The notes beneath the pieces were generated by a model. It saw nothing but the letters and a program-made list of their open reading frames with translations. It was not told the DNA's origin and did not search any database. The position numbers and the translations under genes were made by a program. From Psammoneis japonica (lineage: Eukaryota), in contig QPGO01000161.1 of the NCBI GenBank assembly GCA_008632985.1, forward strand, positions 124,001 to 167,401: 43,401 bases of DNA, written 5' to 3'. The first letter of the stretch is position 1. Each line of letters starts with the position of its first letter. Of this stretch, positions 1,918 to 40,124 are shown one piece after another.

Positions 1918-2755
1918 AATGAGTTGGTGTTGAAAAAAACGAGTGATATCGCGTACGGCCTTCGCATCGTGCAGTCCAACAGTTACAATGCTCACTACTT
2001 GCCATGCATTTGGCTTACAGTTATTGTTATTCGTTGTCTTTCTCTTGGTAGAGCTACCTACCTCCCGCAACAGAACGGCGGCACGTAGTTTGAACAGTAG
2101 ATCCCCAACCAAAGGCTCTATTATCTTTTCTTTTAATGCTGGATTGAACAGATCGCGCGCAGAGCATAGAGTACAGCAATTGGAGTATCCTGGTCTTGTG
2201 ACGACACGCGTATTGCGTTCTTCGCTCTTTTTTTCCTTGCTAACTGTCTATCAACTGTTTGGTGCCTTCGTCCGGGTTTTCATGGCGATGCCAGTGTAGG
2301 GTTTTTGTCTGAGACAGGATTTTTTTACCGTGACAGTCCACTAAAAAAGTTAGTTAGGCAATTACGTAAGAAAGTGTAGCACATCTTGCTACCCAAACCA
2401 AGCTCCCCTCTCAGGTTTGTTGTGTCGATCGATCATCGGACATTTTTGAAAGAGTTTAGTAGAATTCTACGTGCGTCATACGACACGTCAGCATTTTTGA
2501 AATTTTGAGCGGGAACACATCATCACGCAAGCACACGGAGATTTATATGTGTTCTTTCGCTTTTCGCTTTTCTGACACGATGCAGTCTTCTCCGAATTGG
2601 AACAAAAATGTTCTACTCCTGATGCCTGGAACAAACGGTTGATTGAATCTCTCGTTGCAGCTTTTTGACGTGGAGGGCAGTGTTGCTTATTATCTTCTTA
2701 CGTAAACGAGCCAGCAGGTAAAAAGCATCAGTCATGTGGAGAAAGATCAAAAAGC

Positions 2756-4288
2756 ATGTTGTCCCCGTTGAGCAGAAATTCCCAAACGGCACACGCATCT
2801 CAAAGGAATACTGCAGCCGCTACAATGATGAGAGAGGAGGAAGATATTTACAACATGTGTATTGGCGTGGTACAGAGCTATTGTTATTGTAGAGACAGGG
2901 GCAAGTGGATGTATAATGTCTTGTTCCCATGGTTAGATCTTGGGTGTCACAACGTGAACATCAAAATGACTGAAGAACAAGTAGCAGAATGTTGTAGCAG
3001 CGGTTTAACAGACAAACCGGAGGCTTATTATCGCTACTACTTTGGACCCTATGAAGATTATGATAACCGCGAGAACATGCTTGCCCGAGTTGAAGTCGAT
3101 TGGAAATTGTTTGGTCAGGATTTGAACCGTATACCGAAAATTGCGTTGGAACATGACTTCTGCCATTGTTCTGCTCTTCACTACGCCGTGTTAGCACGTG
3201 ACGTACCCATTGCCATTATTGAAAAGCTGTTGAAAATTCATCCAGAGGCTCGAAAAGAAAATCCTGATGGAGAGGACTGTCCTGGCATTTTGAACTGGAT
3301 CATTAATAGACGGAGAAACGAGTTCGACCAGTTCCGTTCCGATATTCTCCGGCTTGTGCTTTCTCGCGATCCCGATTTGGCAGTGGAAAGGAGAAACGAC
3401 ATGGAGCGTGCATCCTACGCAGTGGACGCCATCATTAGGCACACAATGGGCCCCATTAGCGATCAAATCAAGGTGGTCCTCGAGACGAGTCCCATTGCTG
3501 TGGGCAATCTACTTGCTCGACAGTTTGAACGTGGAGACGTTTTTGACAATGACAAGCTGTTTGAGTTTACGATGCGTTGCGCCCGCCGTCATCTAAGGAG
3601 TCACTTTGAAGTGTTTTGTATGGAACTGGAAGACATGCCTAATTTGTTGCATCGAGCGTTATTCTTGTACATTGGATCAGATGACGTAGATGATGGCGAC
3701 GACGAATCGCGCCGATTCACACTATTCGAAACAATCTTTCGCGCTCTTGATGACTCAAACAAGGCTTTGTTTCCACGGTACATTAAAATGTTTGCCGAGG
3801 CTCTACACGAAAAGGTACAAAGTGCAGAAGATTGTGCACCGAGAATTGATTTGAATTCAACGACTTGTTGCGTGCTGTACACCTTGTCGATTGTGCCAAA
3901 GCAATATTCGTGGGTATGCAAAGCCGAGGAGCTTTGGACATATTACTTTGAATACTTTTGCCAGGAAGTGAGCCGAGAAACAAAAGATTCTTCTCCACCT
4001 CTTTTTACCGCAATTCGACTCGGCCATGGCTGGAATCCTGTACTCAAGGACATTATTCAGCAAGACAAGACTGCTGTTGACTTTCAGCACACTCCGGCCT
4101 TTATCGTGGCGGCGACTGTAAATCCTGGTGATGAAATTGCTGCTGTCAACACTCTATTTGAGCTTCTTCGATATGACCCGGGTGTATTAGAGGCTCAACT
4201 TTGCAGAACAGACGCAAACACACCGGCTCAACAATGTGCTGTCCTACAGAACGTGCTGGAGGGAGTGTCATACACAACCAATTCATAA
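2756..4288 (+). CDS. Hypothetical protein, 510 aa, weakly ankyrin-like
   Basis: Long ORF with normal composition (Tyr present). It contains SALHYAV, NLLHRAL, PPLFTAI and a C-terminal FIVAAT...NTLFELLRYDPGVL resembling diatom ankyrin-like families. Confidence 0.6.
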   Translation: MLSPLSRNSQTAHASQRNTAAATMMREEEDIYNMCIGVVQSYCYCRDRGKWMYNVLFPWLDLGCHNVNIKMTEEQVAECCSSGLTDKPEAYYRYYFGPYEDYDNRENMLARVEVDWKLFGQDLNRIPKIALEHDFCHCSALHYAVLARDVPIAIIEKLLKIHPEARKENPDGEDCPGILNWIINRRRNEFDQFRSDILRLVLSRDPDLAVERRNDMERASYAVDAIIRHTMGPISDQIKVVLETSPIAVGNLLARQFERGDVFDNDKLFEFTMRCARRHLRSHFEVFCMELEDMPNLLHRALFLYIGSDDVDDGDDESRRFTLFETIFRALDDSNKALFPRYIKMFAEALHEKVQSAEDCAPRIDLNSTTCCVLYTLSIVPKQYSWVCKAEELWTYYFEYFCQEVSRETKDSSPPLFTAIRLGHGWNPVLKDIIQQDKTAVDFQHTPAFIVAATVNPGDEIAAVNTLFELLRYDPGVLEAQLCRTDANTPAQQCAVLQNVLEGVSYTTNS

Positions 4289-4480
4289 TTCTATTCAAAA
4301 GCATCATTGGAATGAGTCATTATCTACATAATTAAAAAGCTTTCATACGCACTATTTCTTGGGGCATGCTATCGCTTCTCTTCAATGCAAATACAAATAC
4401 CTTGCCACCATCCCGATCCGATTATTTCTAGAAGCGAGCAAAACCATGTTTCATCGGACTCCTGCGGTCGCACCAGGGTG

Positions 4481-5419
4481 TTACTCCACGGCAATAGAAT
4501 ATTCGGCGGGGTTAAGCTGATATGGCGATTCGGGATGAATGTATAGATCGGAGTTCTTCACCACATTGCTATAACGTTGATACCCGGCCGCGTGCAATAT
4601 ATCTCGTGTTTCCTGCACCGAAGCGCGGGCTTCCGGCTTGTCGTAATGGGCTTCCACCATGAAAACATCCACATGAATTTCCGAGAAATCCAACGTTTTC
4701 AATACCAGTGGTTCGGCATGCTCCACGTCTAGAGAAAAGAACGAAACACGAGGCATAAGGGCTTTCAACACGGGTCCCAGCGGACCACAGGGGACTGTGA
4801 TTTTCGTTTGAGCCGTGTCGTCCACATCAAATTGCCCCGATCCTGGTTTAGCTCTGGCATCAAATTCAATCGTCGAATTGACTTGCATGCAAGAAGCGGC
4901 AAAAGACAGGCGATGCGCATTGGGACGGTTCTTAATCAAATTTGGAAACACTCTTGGACTTGCTTCAATGAGGAGCCCTTTCCAACCGAGGCAGGCTTCA
5001 AAAAAGCGAGTGTTAGACCAATGATAACCATCAAAGGCTCCGAGTTCAACAAACGTCCCATTATAAGCCTTTTGGAAGAGGACTCGACTTAACGTCTCGT
5101 CTTCCCCAAACTGTGAGCGACTATATTTTCCTTGTGCAAAGTAGTCATGGAACTCGGGAGGCTCGCCACACAGCGACGAATCAATCACTGAATCCTTGTT
5201 TTGAGGTGCCTGATACTGATATCGCTGACGAAAAAATTCCAACTGACGTTGCTTTTCTGCTATTGTTGCGTCGTGCAAATAACGTGAGGTCGAGTTTCTC
5301 CAGAAATGATGCTGGACACAAGTCAGGCCAATGGCCGCTACAGCCATTATGGTTTTAACGTCACTGCATCCCAGTAGACATCCGTTTCTCCCATTTTTCT
5401 TTCGTGTGACAATCCGCAT
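4481..5419 (-). CDS. FkbM-family (Methyltransf_21) SAM-dependent methyltransferase with N-terminal membrane anchor
   Basis: Motifs SQFGED, GTFVELGAFDG..SNTRFFE..LGWKGLLIEA, FFSLDVEHAE. Confidence 0.85.
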   Translation of the reverse strand: MRIVTRKKNGRNGCLLGCSDVKTIMAVAAIGLTCVQHHFWRNSTSRYLHDATIAEKQRQLEFFRQRYQYQAPQNKDSVIDSSLCGEPPEFHDYFAQGKYSRSQFGEDETLSRVLFQKAYNGTFVELGAFDGYHWSNTRFFEACLGWKGLLIEASPRVFPNLIKNRPNAHRLSFAASCMQVNSTIEFDARAKPGSGQFDVDDTAQTKITVPCGPLGPVLKALMPRVSFFSLDVEHAEPLVLKTLDFSEIHVDVFMVEAHYDKPEARASVQETRDILHAAGYQRYSNVVKNSDLYIHPESPYQLNPAEYSIAVE

Positions 5420-5750
5420 GGTGTTGTATAGTGAGGGCCGCCAAGTGAGCCTCCGTTGTGTTTGCTGTCAGAATAACCTGTACAGCACATTATTTTCAGC
5501 AAAATTGTAAATTGTGAGAGCTTGCGGTCTTCCGTGCGTTGAACTCTTATTCTAACATACATTCTCTAGGGTTTTCATATAACTAAAGGAGTTGAGCAAG
5601 CCCACGATACTGTACAGACAGTACGATTGTGGCGATACTACTGTACAGTATCGAATTTAGATTCCATTCATTGTCTTGCTTTCCTTCAGTTCTGTTTGAT
5701 AGCATTTAAGACATACACCCGGCATTTTGTCCATCAACCAGACAAAATTA

Positions 5751-7275
5751 TAGGGCCCTACTTACATCATGTCCACATGTGGGCCGTAAAAAATTTGCGG
5801 CCCATGTGTGCTTGCATTTCCGTGCAATTTTTTGCCGATTTCTCCCTCCACCATGGCGGACCCTGCGGCTGGCCCCACCGGTGAAGGACATTCACTCCAG
5901 CAATCTTGGACGCCTGACAACATCATCAGGGAAATGCCAGATGTGTCAGAATTGCTTGCAGCGGGAACAGAGACATGCATTTTTTCTTGCCTCTGTTCAA
6001 GACACGCCGCAAAACCCGGCATCGCAGTCTGCTGATGAAGCACCACCTGTTTCTTGGGTGCACGACCCCCCTCCAAGTGTTCCTGTGGAGCATCCAGTGG
6101 CCAACAGAGTTTGGGTGCAACTCAGCTTTGCCAAACAAAAAAGTTGATTGTTTCTGATGTGAAGCACTTGCACCCTCGACATGAGCCGCTGCACTCCGCC
6201 GAGGAAAGCACATCACCGGCATTGACAAGGGTGGAGTCAGCACTGTCTGTCTCATTTTTGTCCTGCAAGGCAGCCAACAAAGACAGACCAGACAAATTCT
6301 GAGTGGACTTTGTTGTGCATTGGGCGCGCTTCAGCATTTTGTTCTCCACTTGGTTGAGGCACAAGATCAGCAGCTGTGGGGGTCGTGCAATTTTTGGGAT
6401 TGAAAATTGAAAAAAGGAACAACTGTTGCATCCATTTTGGACCAAGAATGGACACACGGATGCATTTGTTTTTGTTCTGTTGGTGCAAATGGGGTGTGAA
6501 GAGATGCGCTGTTAAGTTGCTTTGCCAGGAGAGCAAGGCAAACCCAATTTTAAGCAAAACAAGCACACAAAGATGGGGCACGGTTCTTGCAGCATCAGCA
6601 TGCATGCAGCACCAGCACATGTCACCTTCTGACAATCATTTGCATGGCCCAGGTCATCTGGCAACCATTCTCACAGCATTGGGAACTGCTCCATTTTGGA
6701 CTTGGCGGCGAAAGATCTGAGAATTTTTCATGATGCCCATGAGTCCATTGTTTGTGCTTCTTGTCCCGGTGGCCCACCCATTTGACATCTGCCCAAATTG
6801 TGCAAACAATGTGCAAATGACAAACTGACTGAGCACCATCCAAGCCATTGTGTTGACAATGAGCCTTGGGAGTTGCTGCTGCCTCCTCATCTTCAGTGGT
6901 TTTTGCACTCATCTCTTCATGTTCTTTCTCATCCTCTGCACCTTTGTGTGCTGTCACATCTTCCTCAGACACTTCGGGCTTGTCCCCCTCTTCTTGCTTG
7001 TGGCTCATGGCTGCCACTCAAATTGTTGCCAGCCACCACATGTTTGTCCTCAATGTTGCTTTCTTCATCAGCTGAACCAATCATCTCGTCTGGAGCTGGC
7101 ACATCGTCGGACATCATGTCATCCTCTTCTGAAGAGCTCATTGTTCAAATGGACACAAAACTGATTTTTCCTGTGCAAAAATGACAACAAGATGAGCTTT
7201 GTTTTAAGAATTGTGGCAAATTTGCGGCCCACATGTGGGTCGCAAAAATTTGCTTGGCCATGTGCAAATGTCAGA
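5751..7275. mobile_element. Probable degraded DNA transposon remnant
   Basis: Related palindromic motifs (ACATGTGGGCCG..AAATTTGCGGCCC) at about 5775-5805 and 7218-7252 bracket a TpA-depleted interior. No protein was confidently recognised. Confidence 0.35.
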
Positions 7276-7524
7276 TCATTTGGAGAAGAACCTGCCTCAA
7301 GTTTGCCATCACAGTGCTGGTGGTGGGTGACACTTGGTGCTGGTGAGTCATTGCCAAGAGATGGCTGCATCCCAGTCACTGCTCGTTCTGATGGTGAGAG
7401 ATGGAATTTTGAAGCTTCGGGTGCTGGTGTGCTTGTCACAACAAATGCTGCGCTTTCTGCCTCCAATGCCGTGCAAATCATTTTCCTGATTCTCACATCT
7501 GCACTGAGACACATGGGAAAAGTT

Positions 7525-7980
7525 CACAGAAAATGACAAAGAAGTGGATGGAAGAAAACAACAGCTCCTTGCTGCTGTCTAAACAGCAGCCCAAAAGATG
7601 TCATGTTGTGATGACAGCACTGCTGTCATCATTCTTGTGAGTTGAGTGGCTTGAGAGCAAAACTGCATTGCGTGGCTGCGTGGCTGTGTGCATGGAACCA
7701 AGAGCACACACGTCTGTGTGTGACAAACAAATGAACAAAGTCAGGCCACTCTCATTGTGCTTGAGGGAGCCACAGAGACAGATTTGAGGTTGGAGGGGCT
7801 GAAGACCTCTCAAGGTCTGAGTTCTAAGTTCCAGAACATGAGAGGACAGAGAAGATTCTGGATCTGCAAGTGACCCCAATGCTTGCTGAGAATTTCAGTG
7901 GGATTGCAGGAAGCTTCAATGAAGCGAAACTTGAGGAAACCAGAGGCAGTTGCCTCAGGAACATTGTGGAATGAGAGGGC
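7525..7980 (-). mobile_element. Degenerate 3' end of a CoDi-like Copia element (RNase H tail, PPT, LTR)
   Basis: 7525-7745 matches the reverse complement of the LTR at 41112-41387. 7740-7980 parallels 8300-8535. Confidence 0.7.
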
Positions 7981-7988
7981 TGTGTGTC

Positions 7989-8167
7989 AATTCATAATTC
8001 CATTCAAAAGCATCATTGGAGTTGTCCACATGATCAATGAGCTTTCATGAGCACTGTTTCTTGGGGCATGCTGTCACTTCTCCACCATGCAAATGCAAAC
8101 ACCTTGCCACCATCCCGATTTGATTGTTTCTGGAAGCAAGCAAAACCATCTTTCATTGGACTCCTGC
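7989..8167 (+). repeat. Mutated copy of 4280-4465 (region between two converging genes)
   Basis: Direct alignment by eye; the differences are mostly TA>TG/CA and CG>TG/CA. Confidence 0.9.
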
Positions 8168-9410
8168 CATGCTGCCACTGTCATTCTTGTGAGCTGAGCA
8201 GCTTGAGAGCAAAACTTCATCACGCGGCTGTGTGTGTGCAGAGCCAAGAGCAAACATGTCTGTGTGTGAAAAACAAACAAAATCCTGCTCAAATCCTGCA
8301 AGGCCACTCCCCATTGTGCTTGAGGAGGGAGCCACAGAGATGGGTTCAATGTCAGATTGTCCGAAGGCCTTGGGGTTGAAGCTCCAGAAGGACAATGATT
8401 CCAGATCTGTGAGTGACTCCAGTGCTTGCTGAGAGTGTCAGCGGGTTTGTGGGGACCTTCAATGAAGTGAAGCTTGAGAAAACCAGAGGACCAGATGCAG
8501 TCACCCTGCAAACACAATGGAGCAAGAGGGCGGCATGTTGCTTGTTGTGCAGCTTGGAGTGGTTGGGAGATGGCAGCACTGTCCACACAGCTGACTTGTT
8601 GCCCCCAAAACATGTGACACATGTCATGGATTGGGGCACCAAGGCAATGCAATGTGATGAACAGATCAAAGATCTGTTCAATGCATGTGCGGGCAGCAAC
8701 AAACTCAGATCCACCTGCAGGTTGCAGTCTCAAATGTGGCTTGTTTCTTGGAGAACCAATCAGCCAGAAACTTGTTGAGGAAATGAAAGATGCCCACAAC
8801 AGAGCATCCAGTGAGCAGGCAATGGAACAAGCTCACGCCAACACAATGAGTGGCAGTGACAAACTTGCCAAGAGGCTCGGGTGCATCTTCAGGAATCAGT
8901 TCTTTCACATTGCCACACACAGTGTTGGCCCAATCACACACAGGCTTGGGAAGGTCCAAACAGTTGCGTTCCTCAGTGTGCACATGCAAGGCACCATGTC
9001 GCATCTTGGACAAGTGATTGCAGACATGTTTTGCTTGATCTGGGTGGCCTTGGTGGGGGGTGCACTGCATGGAAGCTGGACAGAGATGTGGCAGCTGTGG
9101 CGACATCAATGCAACCAAGCAACACAGCCCATTGCAATGAAGAACCCACCAAAGGCTGAAGCTGATGGATGCCAACTGGGCTGAGCAGTTCAGAGGTTTC
9201 AAGCTCTGGGTGGTCTCCCTTGTTGAGGGGAGATAGCACATCAATGCAAGGTTTCTTCCCAAAGAGGTGTGCACAGCTGTCGACCATGCATCCAATGCAC
9301 TTGCCGCAGAAATGGCACAGAGTCTTTTCACAGGCATGACAAGGACTTTCTTGAGCAATCCAAAAGATGAACAGTGCTCTCTTTCCTTCTGGCCATGGAC
9401 ACCACAACTC
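8165..9410 (-). mobile_element. Degraded Ty1/Copia (diatom CoDi-like) retrotransposon: RT C-terminus/RNase H, PPT and partial 3' LTR
   Basis: Peptides SPLNKGDHPELETSELL, GNVKELIPEDAPEPLGKFV, DWFSKKQATFETAT, GSEFVAART and PADTLSKHW. A purine tract ATGGGGAG on the minus strand near 8307-8314 is followed by LTR-like sequence. Confidence 0.9.
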
Positions 9411-9901
9411 CGTGCTGGGTCCTTTTCTACGTTGGATTTACAATCATCACCCCCTTTGACGCCAATTTGCAGAACAAGAATGCCATTCTTTTCTTTGGGA
9501 GCAACCCTTTTGATTGACCTCCGGCTTCTCGCAAATGGAGTCTTGCGGCCCTGGAGATTTTAAATCTTTGCGGTTTTTGGACGACATGGTTGAATGTGGA
9601 CACGACAGTGACCAATTTTCGTTCTTGGATGAGTTCGGCAAACCTGGCAATCGTTACACGTGCAGTCAAGATGCAACTTTTCCCATGATGGCGGGAAGCT
9701 CTGAACCGCAGGAAATTCCTTTGGCTTCCATTACGACCGATTTTGATTGGCAGAAGTGAGTCCTCTTTGTGAGTGCTATTACAATTTTCATAGACCGGAA
9801 CAATGCACCTTCAATTTTTTTTGGTAACTTTCTTTACAGTAGTGACATTTTTTAAAACACAAAAACAACAAAGGCGGCGACTAGATTGTTCGCTCGGTGC
9901 A

Positions 9902-10929
9902 CTATCCAGCATACACTACAAGTACAAGGACAGCAACTGGAGACTTCGCAAAGTTATACGCGGCTGAATAAAGCAGCAAAGAAGCTGATCTATTAATTCT
10001 TTTCCTTGACATCCAAAGCACGAAAGTATGTAGCAAATGACTCCTCAAGCATTCCAAGCATGAAGTGGGTGAGAGTATCTGTTGTGCCAGAGTCCCAAGC
10101 TTTAATAGCCTCAAAGTATTGTGTCTTTTTGCGTTGCGGACGACGAGGGCAGGACAGCCTTCTCGAAGCAGAACATAGTTCATTAGAAGGCGCGCCATCC
10201 TACCATTACCGTCGCGAAACGGGTGAATCCGGGCAAAGATGGTGTGGCAAGACACAGCCAGAAGGAATGGATGAACCCCTTCGGCTGTGCTGCACGATAG
10301 CCAACTAAGAAATTCCGTCAGAAGGTTTTTCACCTCCCACTGTGGCGCAAATAGTTTTTTCTCTCCCGAAATCATCGCAATTTCCATGCCTGATCGCAAA
10401 ATTCCACCGACTTCCGATTCAAATAATACCATACCGTGCAGCTGCTTTAAGTGATCCATGGTAAGGTCGGTTTTCTTGCGACTGAGTTGCAGCGCCTCGT
10501 CGAATGCCCTTTTGTGACCAATAATGTCGTAAACATCGCGTAGCTTCTACCACGGCCGGGGCAGAAACCGGACAAGATAAGCGCTGTTTCTTTGGCAGTC
10601 AGCGGGTTCCCTTCAATAGCATTACTGTTGTATGTCATATCTTGGCCAATTTTTTCAAGAATCTCCTTGATAGCTTCGACCCGAAATGGTCTGTCTGGAT
10701 GCAACAAGTTCCGTTTCGCTGATAGCCCGGCTAGCCGTCGGCCATGTAAAGCCGCGAGATTGGTGAAGAGCTTCGCATATTCTTTGAATATCTTTCCAAA
10801 TGGATCCTGGTTACCTCGATACACCCTTGTCTGCCGCAGAGTTGCGTTGGCCGGGTTGGCTGCCGTGGAGAGTGACATGTTAGTGGCAGCACTGGCGGTG
10901 TGCTTGGAAGACGGAGAAGAATTGACCAA
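9902..10929 (-). CDS. Fic-domain (AMPylase) protein, class II type, split by frameshift(s)
   Basis: Canonical HPFRDGNGRMAR motif in ORF 9902-10459. The autoinhibitory-type SNAIEGN motif lies in the upstream ORF 10447-10929. The frames join around 10460-10540. Confidence 0.8.
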
Positions 10930-11054
10930 CGGAAATTAAAAGACAGCAAATTCATGCCGATCACGGAATGAATTGACCGCTGTTTTCTGACAAGGTAGTT
11001 TTCAAAGAAAGCTCAAGCTTTGGATGCGATTGAAATGCCGTTGCCAGTTCCTGC

Positions 11055-11790
11055 TTATTCTCTGTATGTTACCCACGGGTGATCTTTCACTTCACTCAAA
11101 GAAAGACGCTCATGCGGATCTTCTCGGAACATTCCTTGTAACAAATCAGCAGCCAATTCACTAATGGGACGCCCCCACAATCTGACCATTCGTTTTAAGC
11201 CACCTTCCACCACCATTCTGTATCGCGGATCCTCTTTCATAGCAAACTCCCACGGCGGCAGTCCAACCAACATGATGAACAAGGTGACGCCGGCGGCCCA
11301 CAAGTCTATGGCAAAATCATCAAACGGCTCTTGACTATGTAATACTTCTGGTGAAATGTAATTGGGCTTACCACAAGGTGTCAAAGGTGTGATAAGACGC
11401 CGTAATGTTCCGGCAGATACGTCTGTCACGTTGCCAGTTTCGGGGTCATTGTATGGTGCCCTCAAGCACATGCCAAAATCGAACACGACAGACTTCTTGT
11501 ATTCATCGACCAGTATGTTTTCAAGCGCTGTGTTACGGTGGCACACCCCAGCCCTCTGCAGATGGGAAAGAGCCTGAGAAAATCATAAAGAAAAATGAGA
11601 ACTAGGAATCAAGGAGTTTTTGCACAACTGTGTGAGTTGCAACGCACCTCTGGGATTTGTTGGAATCAGTAACGCGCCACGGGTTCTGAAAAGCGTCCTG
11701 CGCGCTGTACGAAGCCAAAAAGATTGCCCGGGGAATAAAATGGCATGAACATGAGCAGGTAGTCGTCATCCGCCAATGTTTCTAGTATCT
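11055..11790 (-). pseudogene. Ser/Thr protein kinase C-lobe fragment (CAMK-like), probably a pseudogene; intron at 11574-11647
   Basis: DFG, CGKPNYISPE and DLWAAG are present, but the catalytic loop reads HRNTALEN (no Asp). The upstream exon GNLFGFVQRAGRFSEPVARY*FQQ has an in-frame TGA. The 74-nt intron has GT..AG ends. No N-lobe was recognised. Confidence 0.7.
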
Positions 11791-12085
11791 TTCGAACTCA
11801 GCGTACCTGAGGCTTTTAAGTGCCTGCCGGGACATGCTTTTAACCACTGCCTTGGCTGGAGTTGACTCCCAAGGCACGGCCGCATCATTGCGATAGCGCA
11901 AAACACTACATTGTCGGACGACACCAAAGACGTTCTTTTAGTTTTCGTCCCACCCAATCCCCATCAATGGCGCACTTCTCATGCTGACCCCCGCTCACTT
12001 TTACCAAATGGTTCAAACGCCAAACTCCCCCTCGTGCCAAGAAAAGCTTTTGCAGTTTCTTTTCTTCCGTCAAGTCATCGTCGTC

Positions 12086-15000
12086 CTAAGGAGCTTCATC
12101 TTGCTGTTGCTTTTCTCGTTGTTCCGCGGCAGCCAATGGATTCTCCAAACTCACATCGCGCGAGAACGACATTTCGGAAAAGGCGACACTCACTTCTTGA
12201 TTCAAGTCAGGAGGAATTATCAATCCCAAGCTTCCCTTGGTTGTGTAGGGTTCCAACGACATGAGCGAAATGCCCGACATGGCTGAACTGTCCCTCGCAA
12301 AGTCAGGTTCGGCGGGCCCATCGACATCACTGGCGGCAGCGGCCTTGGGAGGAGGCGCCATTTTGGAAGCCTTGCTGCCATTGGATCCTTGAAACTGCTG
12401 TAAAGTGGCTTGCATCTTTTTCCATTCCTCTTCCTTTTCCATGGCGTCTTGAGCATCGTCCTCTTCGTCTTCGCGTTCCGCACACGATTTCTGCTGATCC
12501 AGAAACGTCTGCGTCTGAAACGAGAGAGGAGCGTCACTGTCTTTACGAAGCGCCAAAAATACATTTTGAATGTAATTGTGTTCGGCAGAATTGATGGAAA
12601 ACTGCGATCCGTGCGACAGTCCCGGTGGTTCCAAACCACCATCCACCGAAGCGACTCCTCGTCGTACGGATGACATGGACGCGGATCCAAACGACGTTCC
12701 GGTCGGTTCGGCAGAATTGATGGAAAAGTGCGATCCGTGCGACGGTCCCGGCGGTTCCAAACCACCATCCACCGGAGCGACTCCTCGTCGTACGGATGAC
12801 ATGGACGCGGATCCAAACGACGTTCCGGTCGGTTCGGCAGAATTGATGGAAAACTGCGATCCGTGCGACAGTCCCGGCGGTTCCAAACCACCATCCACCG
12901 GAGCGACACCTCGTCGTACGGATGGCATGGACGCGGATCCAAACGACGTTCCGGTCGGTTCTGCAGAATTGATGGAAAACTGCGATCCGTGCGACAGTCC
13001 CGGCGGTTCCAAACCACCATCCACCGGAGCGAATCCTCGTCGTACGGAGGACATGGACGCGGATCCAAACGACCTTCTGGTCGGTTGGAGTCTATGGTGT
13101 TCCACACTCGTCATGGACATGGAACCAAATGAAATGCCTGTTGGTTCTAGTGGCCGTTCCATGGACGCCATGGTCTCAAAATCAACTCGTGCACCCGGTG
13201 GTAGAGGCGGAGGCATGCTTGAATTGTTGCAATGTTGTTGTTGCTGCTGCGTCTCCGAGCCTCGCTTTGCCTTTGCTTGTTGTTCTTCTGCTTCCTTTGC
13301 AAACTTTGTCTTTTCTTCTTGCGACAAGCGCTTTTTTCCTCCAGTCTTTTCCCCCCTATCACCGCCACCAGCTCCCGGAGCCTGAGACGGTAAATGCTGA
13401 GGTATGGGTGGCATTCCCATAAAGGGCGATTGCTGCATCACCCGGCTTTGCGAAGACATGGGTGCAGGCGGAGGAACGGTGCTGCAATCTCCTGATGGTT
13501 GATAGGGTGGAACGAGTGTTGTCTTTGGAGCAACGGTGTTGGTAACTTCAAGAATATCTTCTGTCGCAGGATCATAGACAGGAGCATCGACTCCTTTGGC
13601 GCGTCCGATAGTTGCGCCGTCAAATGCCAGAGGCGGAGCCGATGGCCCGTTTCGCTCAAGGTCTGTGAACGACGCCGACGCATTCTCTCGAAAAGCTCTT
13701 TCGGACATTCCACTTCGGGGCGTCAAGTCCGTAGCCAGTGTCGAACGTGTTCCATCCAAGCTGGAAACTGAAGATTTGTTGCTGGCAATCTCCACCGCAA
13801 TCTCATTGTGATCCGATATGTTCTCAGTCTGCGGGAGTAACATCCACCCCCCCTCAGCAGCAACGTCACTTGCCAGCTCACTTAGTTTGAGTCCTCCATG
13901 GATTAGTTGCGCTCGCGCCTTATTGGAGGTTGGTAGCATCAGTTGAATTTCACCATGATTCCAACGCCATACATCAGGAAGGAGAGCCGTTTGTGAAGTA
14001 GCTAGTGCAACTGAGCATGGCATTGTAACCAAGAAGGCCGGTGACAATCCGTCAATGTGTGTATCCTCGTCTCCAATACGGAGATGCATTTTTGTCTCCT
14101 TAAGCTTCGCAAAGATCCTCTGAAGTACCTGTGTATGGGCTTCGAGAAGCATGTACAGCGAACCTTTCCACACGGAGCCAATCTTGAGATCTTCTATCTG
14201 CTCGTCTGTTGCACCGCACTCGTGCAGCACTTTGACAAGGTTCTTACAGATGGTGCGTACTCTTTCGATTTCATACTGCTTCAAATCGTCGTGGAGCTCA
14301 ATTACACAGTTTAATCTTACAACGAATCGTTCCTTCCAGAAACAACTCCCTCGCATGCGTTTCACTGAAACGTGTGGTCCGCCGTATTTGACTTCACCAA
14401 ATATGGCAAGTTGTGACAACCGCGACTCGAGCCTGTGAGCGGCTTGGATAGCACGGGCATTCCAGTGTTCCTGCTCATCCATATTTCTGGCATCAAAATC
14501 GACACCAACAAACCCCAATGACCCATCACTGGATGTCGATGAGCTATCCGACATCAAGACATCCCCTTGATGAGAATCGTCTTTGACTCCAGCCGAAGAC
14601 ACTTTTGTCGAATGGTTTCCGGTTCTTCTGCTTGAAGCAGGTCCTGAATGGACGCCCTCCGTTGTTGAACCTTCTTCGGCTGTCTGGCCAGCAATCCAAA
14701 ACAGTTTCTCTAATCCTTTGCGTGATTTTTCCCAATCCATCGAACGCCACTTGTTTTCATATGCCAGCAGCATCTCTTTGCATCTCTTTATCTCGCTCGA
14801 CTCGAACCTCTCAACGAGAAACTTTCGCAAGTTACCCAGAAAGCGCTTGGGTTCGTGATCGCTCTGATCATATACCTCACAATAAAGCGTGTCTTCACTT
14901 CTAACTCCAAAGGCGGCCATTAAATTCTGCATGTATATCGTCCGTTGAGGCCTTCGAATCGTCTCGTCCGCTAGAGTGCGCCGGCAACAGTAGGCATCTC

Positions 15001-15630
15001 TTCCTGCCATTATGCCAGTGCCCCGTTTCAAGATCCAGTCAGAAATCTTCATGGCAATCTCCTTTCTGCTGAAAGCACAATCGAAACAATCTTCTTCCAG
15101 CTCGACAAAATGGTACTGGAACTTCTCACCAAGACCTTGTTCATGTAGAAATCTAGTCTTTCTGTCTATTTCCGTCTCGGATAATCCAAAGCAAATGAAG
15201 CATAGTCGGATTTCCTTATGAGATTCCCCATTTGAAGCTAGCTGTAAAGCGGCCAAAAGTTCAAAAGGCACCATTTTGAATTGAAGTAACCCTCAGAAGC
15301 TAGGATTGCAACGACGCCGCCTCCGCGCGTCTGCAGTAAGCCTCCATCCAGAATGTTCTTTTGAATTACCCCATCAGGACTGTTCGTAAGCCTAGTCTCA
15401 TCAAAGAAGACTTCCAAGACGCCAAGACGCATATGCTCTGTTGTCCAGTGCGTCTGGAGAACACCGTCCTTCGCAAGAGCGCTAGCAAGGTGCCTAAGAG
15501 TGTACGGTTCGCAATCGGCGGCAGTTGATGTGCTTCGCCAGAGGACTTCGCTGCCGTGAAATGAAAGAAAGACATCGTTTCGCTGTTCTTGAACGTTCTC
15601 ACACATTCGCGTTGCCATCTTGCTTGACAC
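12086..15630 (-). CDS. TIR-domain protein, about 1180 aa, with a low-complexity repeat-containing C-terminus
   Basis: The N-terminus has DVFLSFHG...VFFDE...VVAILASEGYFNSKWCL. Restoring one T in the T-run near 15263-15266 joins the two ORFs to give WCLFELLAAL, the TIR WCxxEL motif. Confidence 0.75.
12581..13084 (-). repeat. Coding tandem repeat, 4 x 126 bp (42 aa)
   Basis: Units start at 12581, 12707, 12833 and 12959 and encode EPTGTSFGSASMSSVRRGVAPVDGGLEPPGLSHGSQFSINSA. Confidence 0.95.
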
Positions 15631-15994
15631 TCAACGTCCCATCCACTTTACTGTTAGCAGTAAACTTTACTGTTTATAACAAAGAAGCGCCATGGTGGAC
15701 GTGCGAGACGGCACTGAGAACTGGCCTCATCACATCACTCACGCACTCCATCCCAACTCCCAGCTTGGGAGGTCTGTAAGCCTCATCACAGCGTTGCGTT
15801 GGATCCTGCGCGTTGGATGAGCTGGATTCGGAAAACGCCCGATGGGACAATGACGAGGTTGCGAATGAATTCCGTTGTGCTGCGTCTTTCGTTTGCGTTC
15901 CTCTGTCATCATCATTTACTTCCCTTTATCCGCTGGCACCTGTTGTGGGGACATTGATGGAGTCAGCCAACCGATTGGTTTCACTGGATGGATC

Positions 15995-16110
15995 CACAGC
16001 ACTTTCAATTGCAGTTGAGTGACACCCTGGTGCAACCTCGAGGATTCCCATGAAACATCTCTCGCTTCCAGAAATCAAGCAATGGGATCAAGGTGGTGGC
16101 AAGGCATGCA
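15995..16110 (+). repeat. Diverged copy of the FkbM gene 3' end and 3' flank (about 4400-4510, inverted)
   Basis: attgcagttgagtgacaccctggtgcaacc versus attgccgtggagtaacaccctggtgcgacc; both encode ...SIAVE*, with the stop TAA in one copy and TGA in the other. Confidence 0.7.
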
Positions 16111-16359
16111 ACTTGCATGTCAGTGTCAGACATGCAACAGAATGCCCCGACTGATTGTGCATGTTGCCACCCACTCGGCCGTGCTTTCTGCCACTGTGGC
16201 CATGTGGCGCAGTCAATCAGACCTGTGTGTGTGTGACAGGTGATGTGGTTTTGGTCAAAGCAAGCAAACTGGTCAAAAAAGTGTCAATGGTCACCACTTG
16301 CCAGCATTGTGAGGGAAAGGACATTTTTGCACTGTTTCAGACACCACTGTCGTGGCGGT

Positions 16360-17065
16360 GACTCCCCAAACAACAAGACATCGCATGGTTTGATGTGCCA
16401 CTGATGCAACACAACACGTCCAAGCAGGAAAACAATTTTGGATAAATTCTGGAGATTCAACTGTCACATTGCTGGAATCACACCACTGGAGCCACATCTG
16501 AAATGAGGGACATCGTTGGCTTCTTCGCATCTGCGATTTCAGGGCTTGCAGCAACAGACGGCATGTTTTCTGGCAGACAAGCCCCCAGAAAGCTTTACAC
16601 ACAGCCTAAAACTTGAACCATTCTGTGAGTGACGTGAAAGGTGCAAGTCACACTGCTCACCACAGGTGCGGCAGCCTTCAGGAACTCGAACAAACTTTCG
16701 CTTTTTGTGCTGAACGGCTTCATCTGCAGCATTTTTGGCACCATTTTTGGCGCTTTTTGCAAACTCACACAGGGCTTGTGTCAGCAGAAATGGGCTCTGC
16801 TTCTGAAGCAAGGAAACATCAGCTTCAGGCATCTTGTCAAAGTTCAACCAGTTGTTGCAGAGAGAGCCCTGATGCACCTCCTCTGGAGATCCGTCAAGCA
16901 ACCTTCATCGTCTGGCTTGACAATGCCACGTTCAGTCTAAAAAAAAAAATTGCTGCATCTTGATGCACAACTGGCAAGTGCTTGGAATGAGTTGGCTTCT
17001 GAAAGACTTCTTGGGAGGTGCAGCAATTTCTCAAGAAGATGCTTGGGAGCTTGCTTGCACAGAAA
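16360..17065 (-). pseudogene. Hypermutated paralogous copy of the BTB gene 3' half and downstream region (20470-21430)
   Basis: Aligns to 20470-20950 and 21115-21430, e.g. PEADVSLLQKQSPFLLTQALCEFAKSAK. Confidence 0.85.
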
Positions 17066-17849
17066 ATGCTTGGGTCAGCGCCAATGAATGGCATGTTCTG
17101 CATTGCTGGAAAATGCCCTGAGAACTTGAGAGTCAACAAGAACAAGGCAACCTCAAGACCATCATTTGTCTTTCACACAAGCAAAGCATCAAGCGTTGAG
17201 TCAGTGCAACAAATTTCTGCATTTTTGTGCAAAATCTCAAGCAGCATTTCTTGAAAAATCACTCAAGAGAGCTGCCTTGTGTGCAATGCATGACAACCAA
17301 CTCAGCCACAAAACCAAAGACTGGCCTTTTTGGGGCAGGCCAGCCAATGTGGTGACAGAAAAATTCAGCAAACCACCTCAAATGCTGTGTGCACACTGTG
17401 CATTGCATTGCATGTGGGGAGTCACAAAGCTGGTGCTTTTGGTGTGTGTGCACACTTCAGCACACAGCTGGAAGAGTTGGGGCTTGTCCAGATGAGAGAG
17501 ATTTGCAAGAGAAGCGAAAAGAGAAAAGGCTGCAAGGTTTCTCACTTGTCATGAGCAGCTTCTTTTTCTAGAGAACCAGGCCCAGCTTCTGCACAGTTGC
17601 TTGGGGCAGTTGTCTCCAGCTCTCTCACAGTGGCTGGCAAAGGCTTGGCAGAAGAGCTGGCATTTTCAGTGTGGCACTTGGAAGTGGAAAACCATGCTTC
17701 AAATTTCAAAAAACCACAGCATTTTTGTGGGCATGGCCCCACAATTTTGGTTTTCATGATGTGCCTGTCTCAACATTTCTCATTTTTTTCATGTGAAAAA
17801 CAAAAACAATGGCTTTTGATTCTCAAACAATGGTTCATTTTCCACTGAT

Positions 17850-18900
17850 GCATGCTCTCACTCTGGAGGCAGGACCTGGGCCTCCCATGTGGCATTTTCT
17901 CACATTGCTTCTGTTTGATGGCCTTCTGCCAGAGCTTTGCAGGTGGCGCTGGTGTTGTTCCTTCCAACAAGGCACCCATGAGCATGGCCGTCATTGCCGC
18001 CATGCTTGAATGGCTTTTGAGGGTGGCTCTGTGTTGTTGTCCCAGCTGTTTTTTGATTTTGGGGATTTCATTGTCCTTTTTCCATGAGTTGAGCTGCAAG
18101 AAGCAATGCCGTGGTGTTTGCAGAGTTTCCATGGCTTTTTTGGTCATTTGCTGTTGTCCTCATTGCTGGGTTTGCAAGTGCATCTTGTGCTTTGGAAGAT
18201 TGATTTTGGCCCATCACATGTTGCACACCAGGTTGGCACTGTGGCACCTGCCTTGCTGAGTGGCTTGTTGTTTTTGCAGCTCTTCTTGAGCAGCTGAGAA
18301 GGGAGTCTTGAAGTTGGTCTGCATCTTGTTGGCATCCAGTTTCTTCCTCTGTTCTTTGCATGCATCGCAGTGTGTGACAGTTTTAAACTCCAGGGTGCAG
18401 GTGCAGTTGAGGCACAATCTTTGATTTGTTGGATGAGCAATTTGAAGGGGCACTGGGGTCTCATGGCATTCCCATGTGCAGAAAGACCATTGATCTTCTT
18501 GGGCATTGTTGAATTTTGGAAGGACTCAATGAAGTCATCAGGTGATGGCACATTGCGGTGGCCATGGCTCTGGGGTGCAAGGGTCATGTTGTTGTTGACA
18601 TTGCAGAGGCGTGCACTTGAGTGTCATTGACAAGGAGCACATGTGGTTTCAGCTAGAAGGGCATTGTTGCCATCTTCAGTCTGAGTGTGAAAGGACTGGC
18701 TCATCGCTGCTGTTGTGTGTGAGATTTGTTGCTGCAGGCTGCCTTTGGAAATTGGGGTGATCAGCAGGAGAGGAGCAGTTTGTGTGTGTTTGCAAAATTG
18801 CCTCTTTTTTTGTTGGCAATCACCCATGTGTGCATTGCCAGATGATTTTGCTGCAGAGCTCAAATGCAGAATTCTGTGGGCCAAATGTCACATGCAGCCA
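17850..18900 (-). mobile_element. Degraded gag-like region of a second diatom LTR retrotransposon type
   Basis: Fragments PFKLLIQQIKDC and KMQTNFKTPFSAAQEELQKQQATQQGRCHSAN resemble the diatom Copia gag pattern KTWxNFKxHFxxAQxELRxQ..GYHxAN as I recall it. Confidence 0.6.
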
Positions 18901-19195
18901 GCCCTGCTCAGGGGGATGCCACTTGCAGCCAGACAGAAATGTTTTTGCCCACTGTGGAAATTGGTCAAGACTGTCAAGTTGTTGTGCTTTGACAGTGTGT
19001 GTTGAACATGCAGGGATGTTGTTTCAAATGGAAATTTCAGGAAAAAGTGACAAATGACCCTTGATGGATTTTGTTTTGCCTGGAGGTGGAACCAGCTCTG
19101 CATGAGGTTGGGGTCAGAATTTTTGGCCTTTTTTGCAAAAGAATTTGGAGAAGGGAGTTTGGCACTTCAAACTCCTGTTGGTGTAAAAGAAAGGA

Positions 19196-20140
19196 GTGTG
19201 CACATCCCCATCACTTGCACAGTGCCATGGCAAACTTTCCCTCGTTGCACCCATCTCTGACAAGAAAGCAGTTGACAGGAAAATTGTCATTGCTGCTGCT
19301 TCTGATCTTCTTGTTGTCATCATCTTGATCATCCCCCTGTTGCAGATTCTGCAGACTGATGAAATCAGCACACATGATTCCTTTGCGGTGGCAACAGACA
19401 AACCCATGTCAACTGCTGATTGCTTGGATCTTTGTCTGGAGAATCAAGTGAATGGTTTGATTGCTCAAAACAATCAAGCATTTGTCACAATGCCAGCTAA
19501 AGCCACCAGTTCTTTCCTGAAATTGTTCACCAAGATTTGCACGAAACAAGAGCCTCTTGACAATTTTGTCAACTGCCATCAGCAGACAAAAGCATTCTTG
19601 ACTGATTCGTTGCACTTGCCACCAATGATTGCATTTCACACATCATTGGATCAACCGTTCATTGATCTGCAGAACACACCTCATCCAATGGTGCATTGAT
19701 CATCTGCATTCATTGACAAGAAACAGATTGACTGCTCTGTGGCATTCAAATGGTCTTGACCTTTCATGTTTGTCAGAGGCGTCATTTCAAGATTGGAAGT
19801 GCTGTCAGTCATTTCAACCTTGAAAAGAATGGGATGCATTGCATCATGGAGATGAGGGTCCAGCAATTGACATTGTCAAAAAGAGAACACAAGAGATTGG
19901 CTTTGGTTCATTCAATGTTTTAACATGCAAGTCCTGCAAAGCAATTGTGAACAATGAACCCAATCTGGTCTCTTTGTTGGCTGCAAGCAAGCAGATAAGA
20001 TCTAAAAACTGCTCTCAAAGAATCATTCTCCAGATGTGTTGGCAGGCCTCCCAGCAAAGACAAATGTCGAAGAGGAAAATTCAAGTGTTCCTGCATTTGA
20101 ACAATGAGAATCTCTTGTCGTGTCACTCAATGATTGGCTG
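19196..20140 (+). pseudogene. Degraded copy of a host-type membrane-anchored protein gene
   Basis: An N-terminal hydrophobic stretch is followed by TMPAKATSSFLKLFTKIC..DNFVN..FLTDSLHLPPMI. It has several frameshifts, no Tyr, and TpA is depleted. Confidence 0.45.
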
Positions 20141-20469
20141 AAGGCAAAAAGAGAAATGCTCTTGAGTGGGCTCTGAAATTGAAATCAAATGTAACATGTC
20201 AAGCCACTGCCAAGCACATGGAGAAAGAACTGTTTTCATGTCCCCATCATGAAGCAATGAGGTGTCATTGTCCAGTGTCAAGTGATGGCAGGCATCAAGA
20301 GTTTTGCAAGCACAAGAAAGTTTGCTGAAACAAATGAGGATCCATTCAGACAAGCCAAATCAATTGGGCTAAATCCAGGTGATGGTCGAAACAGATGCCA
20401 ACGGATGCCAGGAAGTATGACAAACGATGATGACTCAGGAATTCATTGGCAACCCCGTCATTTACACCA

Positions 20470-20960
20470 CTTCCCCACACAAGACACAGCGTGGTTGCAT
20501 GTGCCAGCGATGCAACAACACACGGCCCAAGCGGGATAATGACTTTAGATGAATTCTGTAGATTTAACTATCACATTGCAATAAAATTTCACCATTGGAG
20601 TGACATCTGAAATGAGGTGCACCGTCCACTTCTTTGTATCCGCGATTTTAGCCCATGTAATAAACAGCATGATAAGTTCCAAAGTGCCCGCCTTCATGAA
20701 GCCGAACAACCTGACCGGAACTTGAAGAACCATCCTGTAGGTTACGTGATCGGAGCCGCCCAATCATATCCTGCTGGTCACGGGAATGGCAGCCATCAGG
20801 AACTCGAACAAACTTTCTCTGGTTGCGCTGAACGGCTTCATCGGCACCCTTTTTGGCGCTTTTTCCAAACTCACACGGGGCATGCGTCAGTAGAAATGGG
20901 CTGTGCTTCTGAAGCAAGGCAACATCAGCTTCGAGTATCTTGCCAAAGTTCGAACACAGC
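20470..20960 (-). repeat. Partial tandem duplicate of the BTB gene C-terminal region
   Basis: 20848-20947 repeats 21113-21210 (EADVALLQKHSPFLLTHAPCEFGKSAKK). Confidence 0.75.
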
Positions 20961-21035
20961 ACAAGATTGGGATAATAATGTTAGATGAGTTCAGGAGATT
21001 AAACTATCATATTGCCTAATTCGCGACTTTGGAGT

Positions 21036-22168
21036 TACCCCCAAAAATCAAAGGCTTCACTTCTTCGTCTCAGCCGTTTAGTCACTACTGGCCTTCCCCG
21101 AGCTTGAGCAACCTTTTTGGCGCTTTTTACAAACTCGCACAATGCTTCTGTCAGTAGAAATGGGTTCTGCTTCTGAAGCAAGGTAACATCAGCTTCAGGA
21201 ATCTTGCCAATGATCGACCAGTCGTCGCAGAGGGCCTTGATACACCTCTTCTGGAGATCCGTAACGAAGCTGTCATCATCTGGTTTGACAATGCTACGTT
21301 CAGCCTCGATTTAAAAAAAAGCTGCATCTCGATGCACAGCCGGTAAGTACTCGGCACGAGTCAGCTTCTGAAAAGCTTCTTGGGAGGCACCGCAGTTCAT
21401 CAAGAAAATGCCTAGGAGCTTGCTTACATGGAGACTAAACTTCTCTGTATCACTTGGACTCGTTTTAGTGCCTTCTACGAGATCGATCCAAAATTCTTCG
21501 TCCGACACATGCATCAAACGGGACTTGTCGTCAATGCGAAGGATCTTCTTACGGCACGTTGCTGCAGCGGCGTCTCTGATCTTTTCATCATTTAGAATCG
21601 TGGCATGTTCAAAATACGTCCCACAAGTGCTCGCATTAAAAAGGTCTTTCTTCCAAAAGTGTTTGGCATCCCATCGAAGCCGACGAATCTGAAAATACCC
21701 GCCAAGATAATGAAGCGGAGTCGCCGTTTCCGTTGTTATCAGGAGCTCCGAGTCCAGAGAGTACATGTAATCCAGCACATTCGGAAACGCCTTTGCAGCA
21801 ATCTCCTCCAACTCTATCTGACTCTTCCTAGTGTTGGACTCTGCAAATCGACCTCCATCCTTGAACAATCGATCAAAATACTCGCTCTTGCGTGGGCCGG
21901 CTGCAAGTTGCGCCTTGTGCACATGATACGTGTCGGTTTTTGTCGTGTTGTTTTTGGTCTGATACTTGATTTCAATCGTCCAGTCCGAGTAATTATCTCC
22001 TGGATCTTGTCGCCACAATATCTTTTTCTTGTCATTTCGAATCGCCGGAGGAGCCACGTCAGAATCGTACGCATCGTACGATTCGCCGAGTTTTGAGCGC
22101 TTCTTCGAATTTGCTGCCACCTCCTCTCCGTTTGCTGCTATTGTCTTGCGCTTTGCTGTCGTGGCCAT
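21036..22168 (-). CDS. BTB/POZ-domain protein
   Basis: SDWTIEI...TYHVHKAQLAAGPRKSEYFDRLF...AFPNVLDYMY. The TAA at 21311-21313 lies in a homopolymer and is in frame with the continuation IEAERSIVKPDDDSFVTDLQKRCI..., so it is probably TTA (Leu) miscalled. Confidence 0.85.
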
Positions 22169-27200: not shown

Positions 27201-27700
27201 TCACACGGGACAATCCTGCGGGCGCTTGTGCAGAATTGCGAGGCATTGTGATGCAGATTTCACCACTCACAATTTGATCACAAGAGGTTTGATTCTTTTG
27301 CACTCTGTGCTTTTTTCTTCTCAGATTTTGGCTCTTCTTCACCCGCACGTCTTCTGCCCACTTGTTTGTGACAGCGCCCCCTCTGCTCCATTGTGATGTG
27401 GATTTCACCACTCACAATTTGATCACAAGAGGTTTGATTCTTTTGCACTCCTGCCATTCTTCTCTGGCACGTCTTCTTCCCACTTGTTTGTGTCCGGGGC
27501 GAGGTTCTTCTGATGAGGTCTCTTTTGCTTGCTGGCGTGTGTCTTTTTCTGAGATGGTTCCTTCATCAGGAGTTGCAGATTTGGCTTCACCTTGCTCTCT
27601 CTCTCTTCTTTTGTCCCATTCCACGGTTTCCTCTTCCCTTTTTCTTGTTTGTTTTGTTCCTTCTTTAGTGCGTTTGCGGCCGACCATGGTGCGAAAATTT
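24270..27700. other. TpA-depleted tract of degraded, unassigned (probably repeat-derived) sequence
   Basis: Only about 14 TA dinucleotides by hand count in 3.4 kb. Many short Cys/His-rich ORFs and no recognisable domain. Confidence 0.6.
27245..27492 (+). repeat. Two-copy tandem duplication, period about 144 bp
   Basis: attgtgatg(ca/tg)gatttcaccactcacaatttgatcacaagaggtttgattcttttgcactc occurs twice, followed by cacgtcttct..cccacttgtttgtg. Confidence 0.85.
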
Positions 27701-27775
27701 TAGCTTGCTGTCTGTGCGACGTTCGTCATTTCGCCTTGATGCTCGGTCGTCGATCGTGCATGACATTTTTTCAAG

Positions 27776-29895: not shown

Positions 29896-30495
29896 GGTTT
29901 CTTCGTTTTGAGTTTTGAGAACTCGACCATCAACCAACCTGATTTTTTGAAGATGCGCTGCAGCTGGGTATGTGTATTGCCTGATCGCGGATCACGATCA
30001 AACATTTATTCTCGACTCGTGATTCGGGCGTTTGAAATTCGATCAGTCGTGATAATCTTACAGTATATCGTGTAATCCGCCACCCGAACGTCTGTTGTTT
30101 TATATTCTTTCATGTCCAACACCTAAGTAAATGTAACATTTATGTGTCACAGGGCAATATAACAATAAAGAATCACTTGACAAAAGACATCCGAAGAATT
30201 TTGATTTCGCAGAGCGACAACCGCAAACAAGAATCGCAAGAACAGAGTTGCACAAGCCCTCTCTACTTCTACTTCTACTCTGGAGAGCTGGGAGGAGAGA
30301 CCAAGAGCAACCACCAACGCCTGCGTCATTTGTGCTCCTGAACCACACGGTGAGCAGAAAAGGGTCATTGTTTGCGTGTTGCAACATCACAATCGTTTGT
30401 CGATTCTGCACTCACTCTTTGTTTTCTCGTCAAATTTCAAATTCCGTCTTGCAAGGGGAGCTTTTTCCAGAAGAAAGAAGAGAAAGTGTCGAGTC

Positions 30496-40039: not shown

Positions 40040-40124
40040 CGCAGCAGTGATGATGGCTCGACGAGCGACTTGTGATTTGATTTGGATGTTTGAACAATTC
40101 AAAGCAAAACCTTTCATCGACCCT

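Follow-up and report, generated by a model that had tools for sequence, protein, structure and literature searches.

Probable replacement of TpA by TpG and CpA in sharply bounded blocks of a Psammoneis japonica contig and its imprint on a duplicated host spacer

In a stretch of the Psammoneis japonica genome comprising 43,401 nucleotides (assembly GCA_008632985.1, contig QPGO01000161.1, positions 124,001 to 167,401, forward strand; hereafter the window), TpA dinucleotides are nearly eliminated from several sharply delimited blocks, and a host intergenic spacer duplicated into one of these blocks displays TG or CA at almost every place where its genic counterpart has TA. We consider it highly probable that the blocks were subjected to hypermutation of chromosomal DNA in place, restricted to their limits, converting TpA to TpG or CpA and running alongside the decay of CpG. 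To our knowledge, directed hypermutation of DNA from A:T to G:C is almost unknown in nature. The two spacers constitute a natural experiment in this respect, the same host sequence being found once in genic surroundings and once within a repeat block 3.5 kb off.

Comparison of the window with itself by BLASTN pairs 4279–4465 with 7988–8167 at 82.9% identity over 187 columns (E 3e-52), and identical columns with a single 7-base gap were obtained using MAFFT and global pairwise alignment. The 13 TA dinucleotides of the 4279 copy correspond in the 7988 copy to eight TG, four CA, and one retained TA, so that all 12 altered sites are transitions, and its six CG dinucleotides correspond to two TG, two CA, one AG, and one unchanged CG. 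Other positions are much less affected, 8 of the 142 bases outside TA and CG being different: three transitions and three transversions are found among 86 other A/T bases, and one of each among 56 other G/C bases. Transitions hit 12 of the 26 bases belonging to TA versus 3 of the 86 other A/T bases (Fisher p 6.5e-7), while the probability that at least 12 of 13 TA dinucleotides would be changed at the background of 8/142 per base is 3.5e-11. The 4279 copy has 24 TG/CA dinucleotides, and at none of them does the 7988 copy show TA. The preliminary description of this DNA, compiled by hand from the letters, had reported 12 of 13 TA converted (8 to TG and 4 to CA), four of six CG turned to TG or CA, and much rarer differences elsewhere; the global alignment reproduces these counts exactly. 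Outcomes of the two kinds are interleaved along the 7988 copy, forming 8 runs among 12 conversions within 180 bases, and therefore point to many separate events on both strands rather than to a single processive sweep or to the editing of a single RNA strand. With 12 of 13 TA lost against a background divergence of 5.6%, the rate per target base is at least about 40-fold above background, this value being a lower bound since TA sites are near saturation.

The genic copy, 4279–4465 on the plus strand, separates two convergent open reading frames (ORFs), 2669–4288 (+), for which no Pfam family was found, and 4481–5467 (−), encoding an FkbM methyltransferase domain. Every homologue of the latter that carries an organism name belongs to a diatom (39–49% identity), and no protein-level duplicates of the two spacer-flanking genes are present within the 43.4-kb window. 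At the left end of the window, positions 2–1813 are occupied by a gene fusing a MenC-like enolase with a polyketide cyclase. Copy number was estimated over 4000–12000 from the depth of contigs of two runs of one sample, which is probably the window's own and brings no independent support. Against the single-copy baseline of about 58 (58.4), the bin 4267–4533 containing the spacer has a depth of 69.7, that is, about single copy, and the depth rises to 15,556 at 7471–7737 and to 13,606 at 8539–8805. Therefore, the 7988 copy sits among high-copy repeats. The summed contig depth of these two segments is about 230–270 times that of single-copy DNA, and the block around them is devoid of any recognisable protein domain. 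The designation "TE fragments", given to this surrounding initially, has its basis in this depth; none of 123 block ORFs scored above the Pfam cut-off.

The structure of the repeat around the 7988 copy (plus strand) is peculiar to this locus. In other copies of the repeat, position 7987 is connected directly to 8662, and 7942 to 8693, and 7988–8661 is therefore an insert specific for this place. It consists of the spacer copy together with a local duplicate, 8181–8489 (+), of the unit 7629–7946 (+), which it matches at 72% identity; this second unit belongs to the stretch that is absent from other repeat copies. A contig with a depth of 57.9 bridges 7556–8764, which corresponds to a single-copy arrangement. 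A third, partial copy of the spacer lies at 16004–16107 on the minus strand, at the edge of another block, matching 4397–4499 at 75% and containing zero TA. The interval 15995–16110 had been put forward as an outgroup for polarising the changes: it does hold a real copy, and its location in a TA-free block makes it no clean outgroup. A third copy of the spacer in unmutated form is missing from the window, and no further copy with at least 80% likeness was found among the matches listed for the contigs of the two runs. A 19-base word of the spacer searched for in metagenomes gave eight loci, all eight being chance matches without extension, and the search for a metagenomic outgroup via the FkbM protein returned no relatives among 34 pattern matches.

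The 7988 copy shares its composition with the block around it, and this block has several counterparts. Four or five sharp-edged blocks account for about 22–24 kb of the 43.4-kb window with an observed/expected ratio (o/e) for TA of 0.04–0.11. Block 1 (5796–9428), largely composed of high-copy repeats, retains 7 TA in 3.6 kb, and the segment delimited there by the hidden Markov model (HMM), 5796–9729, has a CG o/e of about 0.30. Block 2 (15928–20370) contains 13 TA at a CG o/e of about 0.26, and block 3 (24341–27852) contains 12 TA at about 0.36. Block 4 (30281–41077) has 49 TA in 10.8 kb, with a CG o/e of 0.83 over the first 3.2 kb, and a further probable block running off the window (42219–43399) shows a TA o/e of 0.10 and a CG o/e of 0.84. 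In four blocks, TA o/e is 0.04–0.07 versus 0.51–0.62 in normal segments; TG and CA reach 1.5–1.9 in blocks, and CG in normal DNA stays at 0.93–1.03. The left edge of block 1 is abrupt, 26 TA being counted in the 320 bases before 5787 and none in the following 726 bases (5787–6513), and repeated DNA sets in no more than about 70 bases from this edge (5787/5796). The right edge of the block lies at about 9289–9428.

The bookkeeping of dinucleotides is nearly closed. Per kilobase, blocks have lost 35.4 TA and 27.6 CG relative to normal DNA and have gained 34.5 TG and 29.2 CA, i.e., 63.0 lost versus 63.7 gained, and for the remaining 12 dinucleotides the block/normal ratios are all within 0.92–1.14 (AA 1.07, AG 1.03, AT 0.92). 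GC content barely shifts, 0.469 in blocks against 0.485 in normal DNA, and the overall CG o/e is 0.44 versus 0.97. Two stretches, 30281–33500 and 42219–43399, combine a TA o/e of 0.10–0.11 with a CG o/e of 0.83–0.84, compared with 0.26–0.54 for CG in the other blocks. Such TA-poor, CpG-keeping stretches demonstrate that the two losses are separable, and the erasure of TA is faster than, or independent of, the decay of CpG. The context YTAR (CTAA/TTAG, TTAA, and CTAG) is over-represented among the TA dinucleotides that survive in blocks, accounting for 51 of 81 of them versus 125 of 675 in normal DNA (p 4e-16). This bias hints at a target motif wider than the dinucleotide itself; a strand test of such a motif (A followed by Y, or R-T before A) divided 19 asymmetric sites as 11 versus 8 (p 0.65).

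A TA-free sequence has consequences for translation. Tyrosine makes up 0–0.9% of residues in block ORFs versus 1.2–4.3% in normal ones, the codons TAT and TAC being reduced about 30-fold. Open frames in the blocks are long, up to 452 amino acids, and occur in several frames (for example, 35737–37092 and 34252–35298). Among the 123 block ORFs of at least 90 amino acids, Pfam gave two weak matches far under the cut-off and none was accepted, and a homologue search with the 452-residue ORF returned nothing. Such long frames devoid of homologues are there because TAA and TAG have been erased, and to judge from their composition, the block ORFs lacking tyrosine are probably false genes. The HMM also flagged as TA-poor a tandem-repeat ORF at 11951–13342; its TG/CA and CG contents are normal, and it was set aside as a case of ordinary coding bias rather than erasure. 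Positions 12454–13209 carry a tandem array in which a 126-base unit (42 codons) is repeated five to six times at 96–97% identity, enclosed in an ORF of 1068 amino acids (12086–15292) with no Pfam family; it is likewise TA-poor with normal TG/CA and CG, and has nothing to do with the erasure. To the right of block 1, about 470 bases beyond its edge, the minus strand at 9902–10546 contains an ORF for a Fic/DOC domain (E 4e-17).

Membership in a repeat family is not by itself sufficient for the loss of TA. A high-copy fragment at 41219–41355 (−), just outside block 4, belongs to the same family as 7556–7661 and retains TA and CG where two block copies show TG or CA; as it has not been erased, repeat-family membership alone does not explain targeting. 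This fragment possesses a 35-base stretch common to most other copies and missing from 7556–7661. Three host-derived pieces have one copy in genic DNA and one in a block: in all three pairs the genic copy keeps a TA o/e of 0.49–0.79, in line with the original remark on the spacer pair that only the copy inside the repeat block is affected.

Direction of change in the spacer pair has to be approached indirectly because no unmutated third copy is available. The TA o/e of the source spacer, 0.72, lies inside the range of 0.21–1.11 for ten other spacers in normal DNA, and a RIP-like gain of TA in the 4279 copy is therefore not indicated. The 7988 copy, at 0.07, resembles its unrelated block flanks, at 0.04 and 0.00. 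One site is found in three states, TA, CA, and TG, a different one in each copy, which takes two steps if TA is ancestral and three from either alternative. At CpG, two of the four changes in 7988–8167 are derived, since the third copy agrees with the source there. A counter-signal comes from the TA sites shared with the third copy, three of four being TG in both block copies, as ancestral TG would also give; the first of these three relies on the reading of a gapped stretch. From composition, the three-state site, and the two CpG sites we infer that the pair has changed from TA to TG/CA. Beyond this pair, five normal-versus-block pairs in the window contain 44 TA sites in their normal copies, 35 of which are TG (19) or CA (16) in the block copy, two are kept, and seven are otherwise changed, so that 35 of the 42 changed sites have become TG or CA; the opposite case, TG/CA in a normal copy facing TA in the block copy, was seen once among about 157 TG/CA. 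Discordance of CA and TG between block copies, observed at 14 of 20 double-transition sites, was considered as a proof of polarity and dropped, as CG ancestors yield the identical pattern. The units 7629–7946 and 8181–8489 differ from each other at eight CA/TG double-transition sites.

More telling for polarity is the duplicated 3′ part of a BTB gene, of which the copy at 16373–17172 (−) is erased and that at 20479–21540 (−) is normal, with a TA o/e of about 0.5. The duplicate spans 700–800 bases, its copies lie 4 kb apart, and one of them only has been mutated. The normal copy ends in TAT TAC and the stop codon TAA, and the block copy in TGT TGC TGC and TGA, so that the C-terminal tail is Y-Y in the former and C-C-C in the latter. 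In the family, which counts 1,337 proteins, the tail has Y or F in 15 of 15 cells (five homologues with a tail, out of six aligned), and by these protein outgroups TA, in the form of tyrosine codons, is shown to be the ancestral state of the pair. One site is at variance, the normal copy having GTA (Val) and the block copy GCA (Ala), as the closest homologue has Ala; two further amino-acid sites gave no polarity. The composition tests and the BTB outgroup thus agree with the initial claim that the repeat-embedded spacer has been converted and the 4279 copy represents the unaffected state. The normal BTB copy has features of its own: a 264-base internal tandem duplication of the C-terminal module (20844–21220) and, at 21311–21313 (−), an in-frame TAA after a T run where homologues continue (K-L-I-D), by which it may be a pseudogene, contain an intron, or reflect a homopolymer error.

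In the explanation we favour, the spacer 4279–4465 would have been copied into the repeat 3.5 kb away, probably via a local chromosomal rearrangement, and the captured sequence would then have been mutated in place along with the entire surrounding 3.6-kb repeat block. At every attacked TpA, A:T would be replaced by G:C, with TG as the result when A becomes G on the top strand and CA when this happens on the bottom strand, and both strands would be attacked site by site over many rounds. The action would be confined to the sharp-edged blocks, sparing adjoining genes and spacers, and would be accompanied in the same blocks by a decay of CpG (CG to TG/CA, as for methylated DNA), which would be slower and not ubiquitous. 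The other two host-derived pieces are located 4 and 12 kb from their sources; given nearby sources and an insert that is present once, capture appears to be a local chromosomal event, with erasure following in place on DNA. Directly observed are the spectrum of changes, their specificity for TA, their confinement to blocks, and the involvement of both strands. As for the chemistry, chances are about even that the adenine of DNA is deaminated to hypoxanthine by an enzyme of the TadA/ADAT2 kind, preferring A preceded by U or T, and we infer that the blocks may be marked as silent chromatin. Both suggestions follow by analogy the reasoning of a preprint on the alga Bigelowiella natans (Mettrop et al., bioRxiv 10.64898/2026.01.13.699255) and the part played by cytosine methylation in diatoms, where it controls young transposable elements of Phaeodactylum (PMC9998398).

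Three other readings have been weighed against hypermutation in place by a deaminase. That a RIP-like C-to-T process acting on CA/TG had created the TA sites of 4279–4465, the TG/CA of 7988–8167 being ancestral, is hardly credible; a comparison of two copies gives by itself no direction, and the three TG/TG sites mentioned above are on its side, but it meets a 4279 copy with no TA excess (0.72 within 0.21–1.11), flanked by normal genes, and demands an ancestor as TA-free as unrelated block DNA. It also needs the third step at the three-state site, contradicts the outgroups of the BTB pair, and leaves aside the balance, over 22 kb, between the lost TA and CG and the gained TG and CA. Editing of replication intermediates of a mobile element (RNA or cDNA), with the spacer mutated as a passenger and not in the chromosome, would account for a block edge lying so close to the onset of repeats and for an untouched unique promoter side, with its 26 TA in the 320 bases preceding the edge. 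Nevertheless, we hold it to be very improbable: the arrangement of the insert is single copy and missing from other copies of the repeat, sources at 3.5, 4, and 12 kb argue for local chromosomal events followed by mutation, and TG and CA are interleaved on both strands, unlike what editing of one RNA strand produces. Moreover, the Pfam search of 123 block ORFs revealed neither reverse transcriptase nor any other protein of a mobile element, and the process of B. natans is described in the preprint as acting on integrated single-copy DNA (bioRxiv 10.64898/2026.01.13.699255).

The remaining rival leaves the pattern intact and changes the agent: an identical in-place, block-restricted process at TpA would be driven by error-prone repair synthesis with mispairing at TpA or by a miscoding modification directed to TpA. 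Hypermutation of the polymerase-eta type targets WA, that is, AA as well as TA, and known eukaryotic adenine methylation is placed at ApT, not TpA. A sequence reveals the outcome only, A:T to G:C at TpA, and the YTAR bias of survivors could arise with any enzyme that reads sequence, both points being in favour of such an agent. However, AA and AG are unchanged in the blocks (1.07 and 1.03), and a polymerase error of the WA type is therefore disfavoured, while the preference for T-A is in keeping with the adenosine deaminases of tRNA and RNA that are cited in the preprint (bioRxiv 10.64898/2026.01.13.699255). We regard the rival as improbable, though less so than the two preceding ones.

Among known systems, the closest is the one described for B. 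natans, where TpA-to-TpG/CpA changes were reported to arise de novo in integrated viral DNA of mutation-accumulation lines (Mettrop et al., bioRxiv 10.64898/2026.01.13.699255). According to this preprint, 231 of 302 nuclear single-nucleotide mutations fell into two integrated viral regions, and all but one of those in the viral regions were A-to-G or T-to-C, all of these at TpA; the targets are integrated giant-virus and virophage DNA, and an ADAT2/TadA-like DNA adenine deaminase was proposed (bioRxiv 10.64898/2026.01.13.699255). As far as the preprint's account goes, both cases share the almost exclusive A-to-G/T-to-C change at TpA, giving TpG or CpA depending on the strand, the confinement to particular stretches of DNA, putatively unlike that of the host, with the remaining genome normal, and the long-term trace in the form of clusters depleted in TpA and enriched in CpA and TpG. 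With regard to a possible foreign origin of the targets in our window, block 1 has a high copy number by depth, but none of the 123 block ORFs reaches a Pfam cut-off, and the 452-residue ORF has no homologue. The two cases also differ: B. natans is a rhizarian alga, whereas the named homologues of the FkbM gene of the window are all from diatoms; the targets described there are viral insertions, and those of the window are repeat blocks in which neither viral nor transposon proteins can be recognised. Depletion in the viral region of B. natans is mild, with Rho TpA of 0.45 as given in the preprint, compared with a near-complete one here (o/e 0.04–0.11); the mutations were seen arising there, whereas the window displays the end state only. 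CpG decay accompanies the loss of TA in the window and is not mentioned in the main text of the preprint, in which the words diatom, stramenopile, and CpG have no occurrences (bioRxiv 10.64898/2026.01.13.699255).

In Neurospora and further ascomycetes, repeat-induced point mutation (RIP) is similarly a dinucleotide-specific transition hypermutation; it inactivates repeats and leaves skewed blocks beside normal genes. Unlike the process considered here, which destroys TpA, RIP makes TpA from CpA; it mutates both copies of a duplication, whereas the genic copy is spared in 3 of 3 host-derived pairs, and it lowers GC content, which stays here at 0.47–0.49. The length threshold of RIP lies above 187 bases, and a duplicate of that size would escape it. 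The contrast with RIP drawn in the preliminary description stands with regard to direction and the sparing of genic copies and is a weak argument for the 187-base spacer pair, the longer BTB duplicate being better suited to carry it. Methylation-driven decay of CpG has its likeness in the CG-to-TG/CA changes of the blocks, where four of six CG in the spacer pair have gone this way, the fifth having become AG, and CG o/e is 0.26–0.36 in three blocks; unlike the erasure of TA, it cannot touch TpA. ADAR-type A-to-I hyperediting of RNA from repeats and APOBEC editing of retroelement cDNA are comparable as deamination-based attacks on repeats or foreign nucleic acid, and ADAR prefers U before the edited A. 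They operate, however, on RNA or on one strand of cDNA, as opposed to the interleaved changes found here on the two strands of a host fragment that was captured locally and resides in the chromosome, and the sparing of AA sites here likewise sets the present case apart from them. A full-text search of the literature found no other description of a process erasing TpA, and none for diatoms.

Thus, a process described once so far, in a 2026 preprint on a rhizarian alga, is met here in a new lineage and on a new class of targets. The spacer pair adds evidence that what counts for targeting is position in the block and not where the sequence came from; it also speaks for an action in place on chromosomal DNA, with both strands affected. 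The enzyme, should it be found, would be a natural editor of adenine in DNA with specificity for TA. Long tyrosine-free false ORFs present an issue for annotation, as automatic gene prediction would probably accept them, and the TA-free blocks containing them could serve as marks of silenced DNA in diatom genomes. Tentatively, and with the balance inclining somewhat against so broad a view, diatoms may possess a genome-defence mutator descended from TadA/ADAT2, guided by chromatin domains and acting in place, which spares YTAR, is faster than and independent of methylation decay, and rewrites captured host DNA; together with the rhizarian case, it would represent an old, SAR-wide counterpart of fungal RIP.
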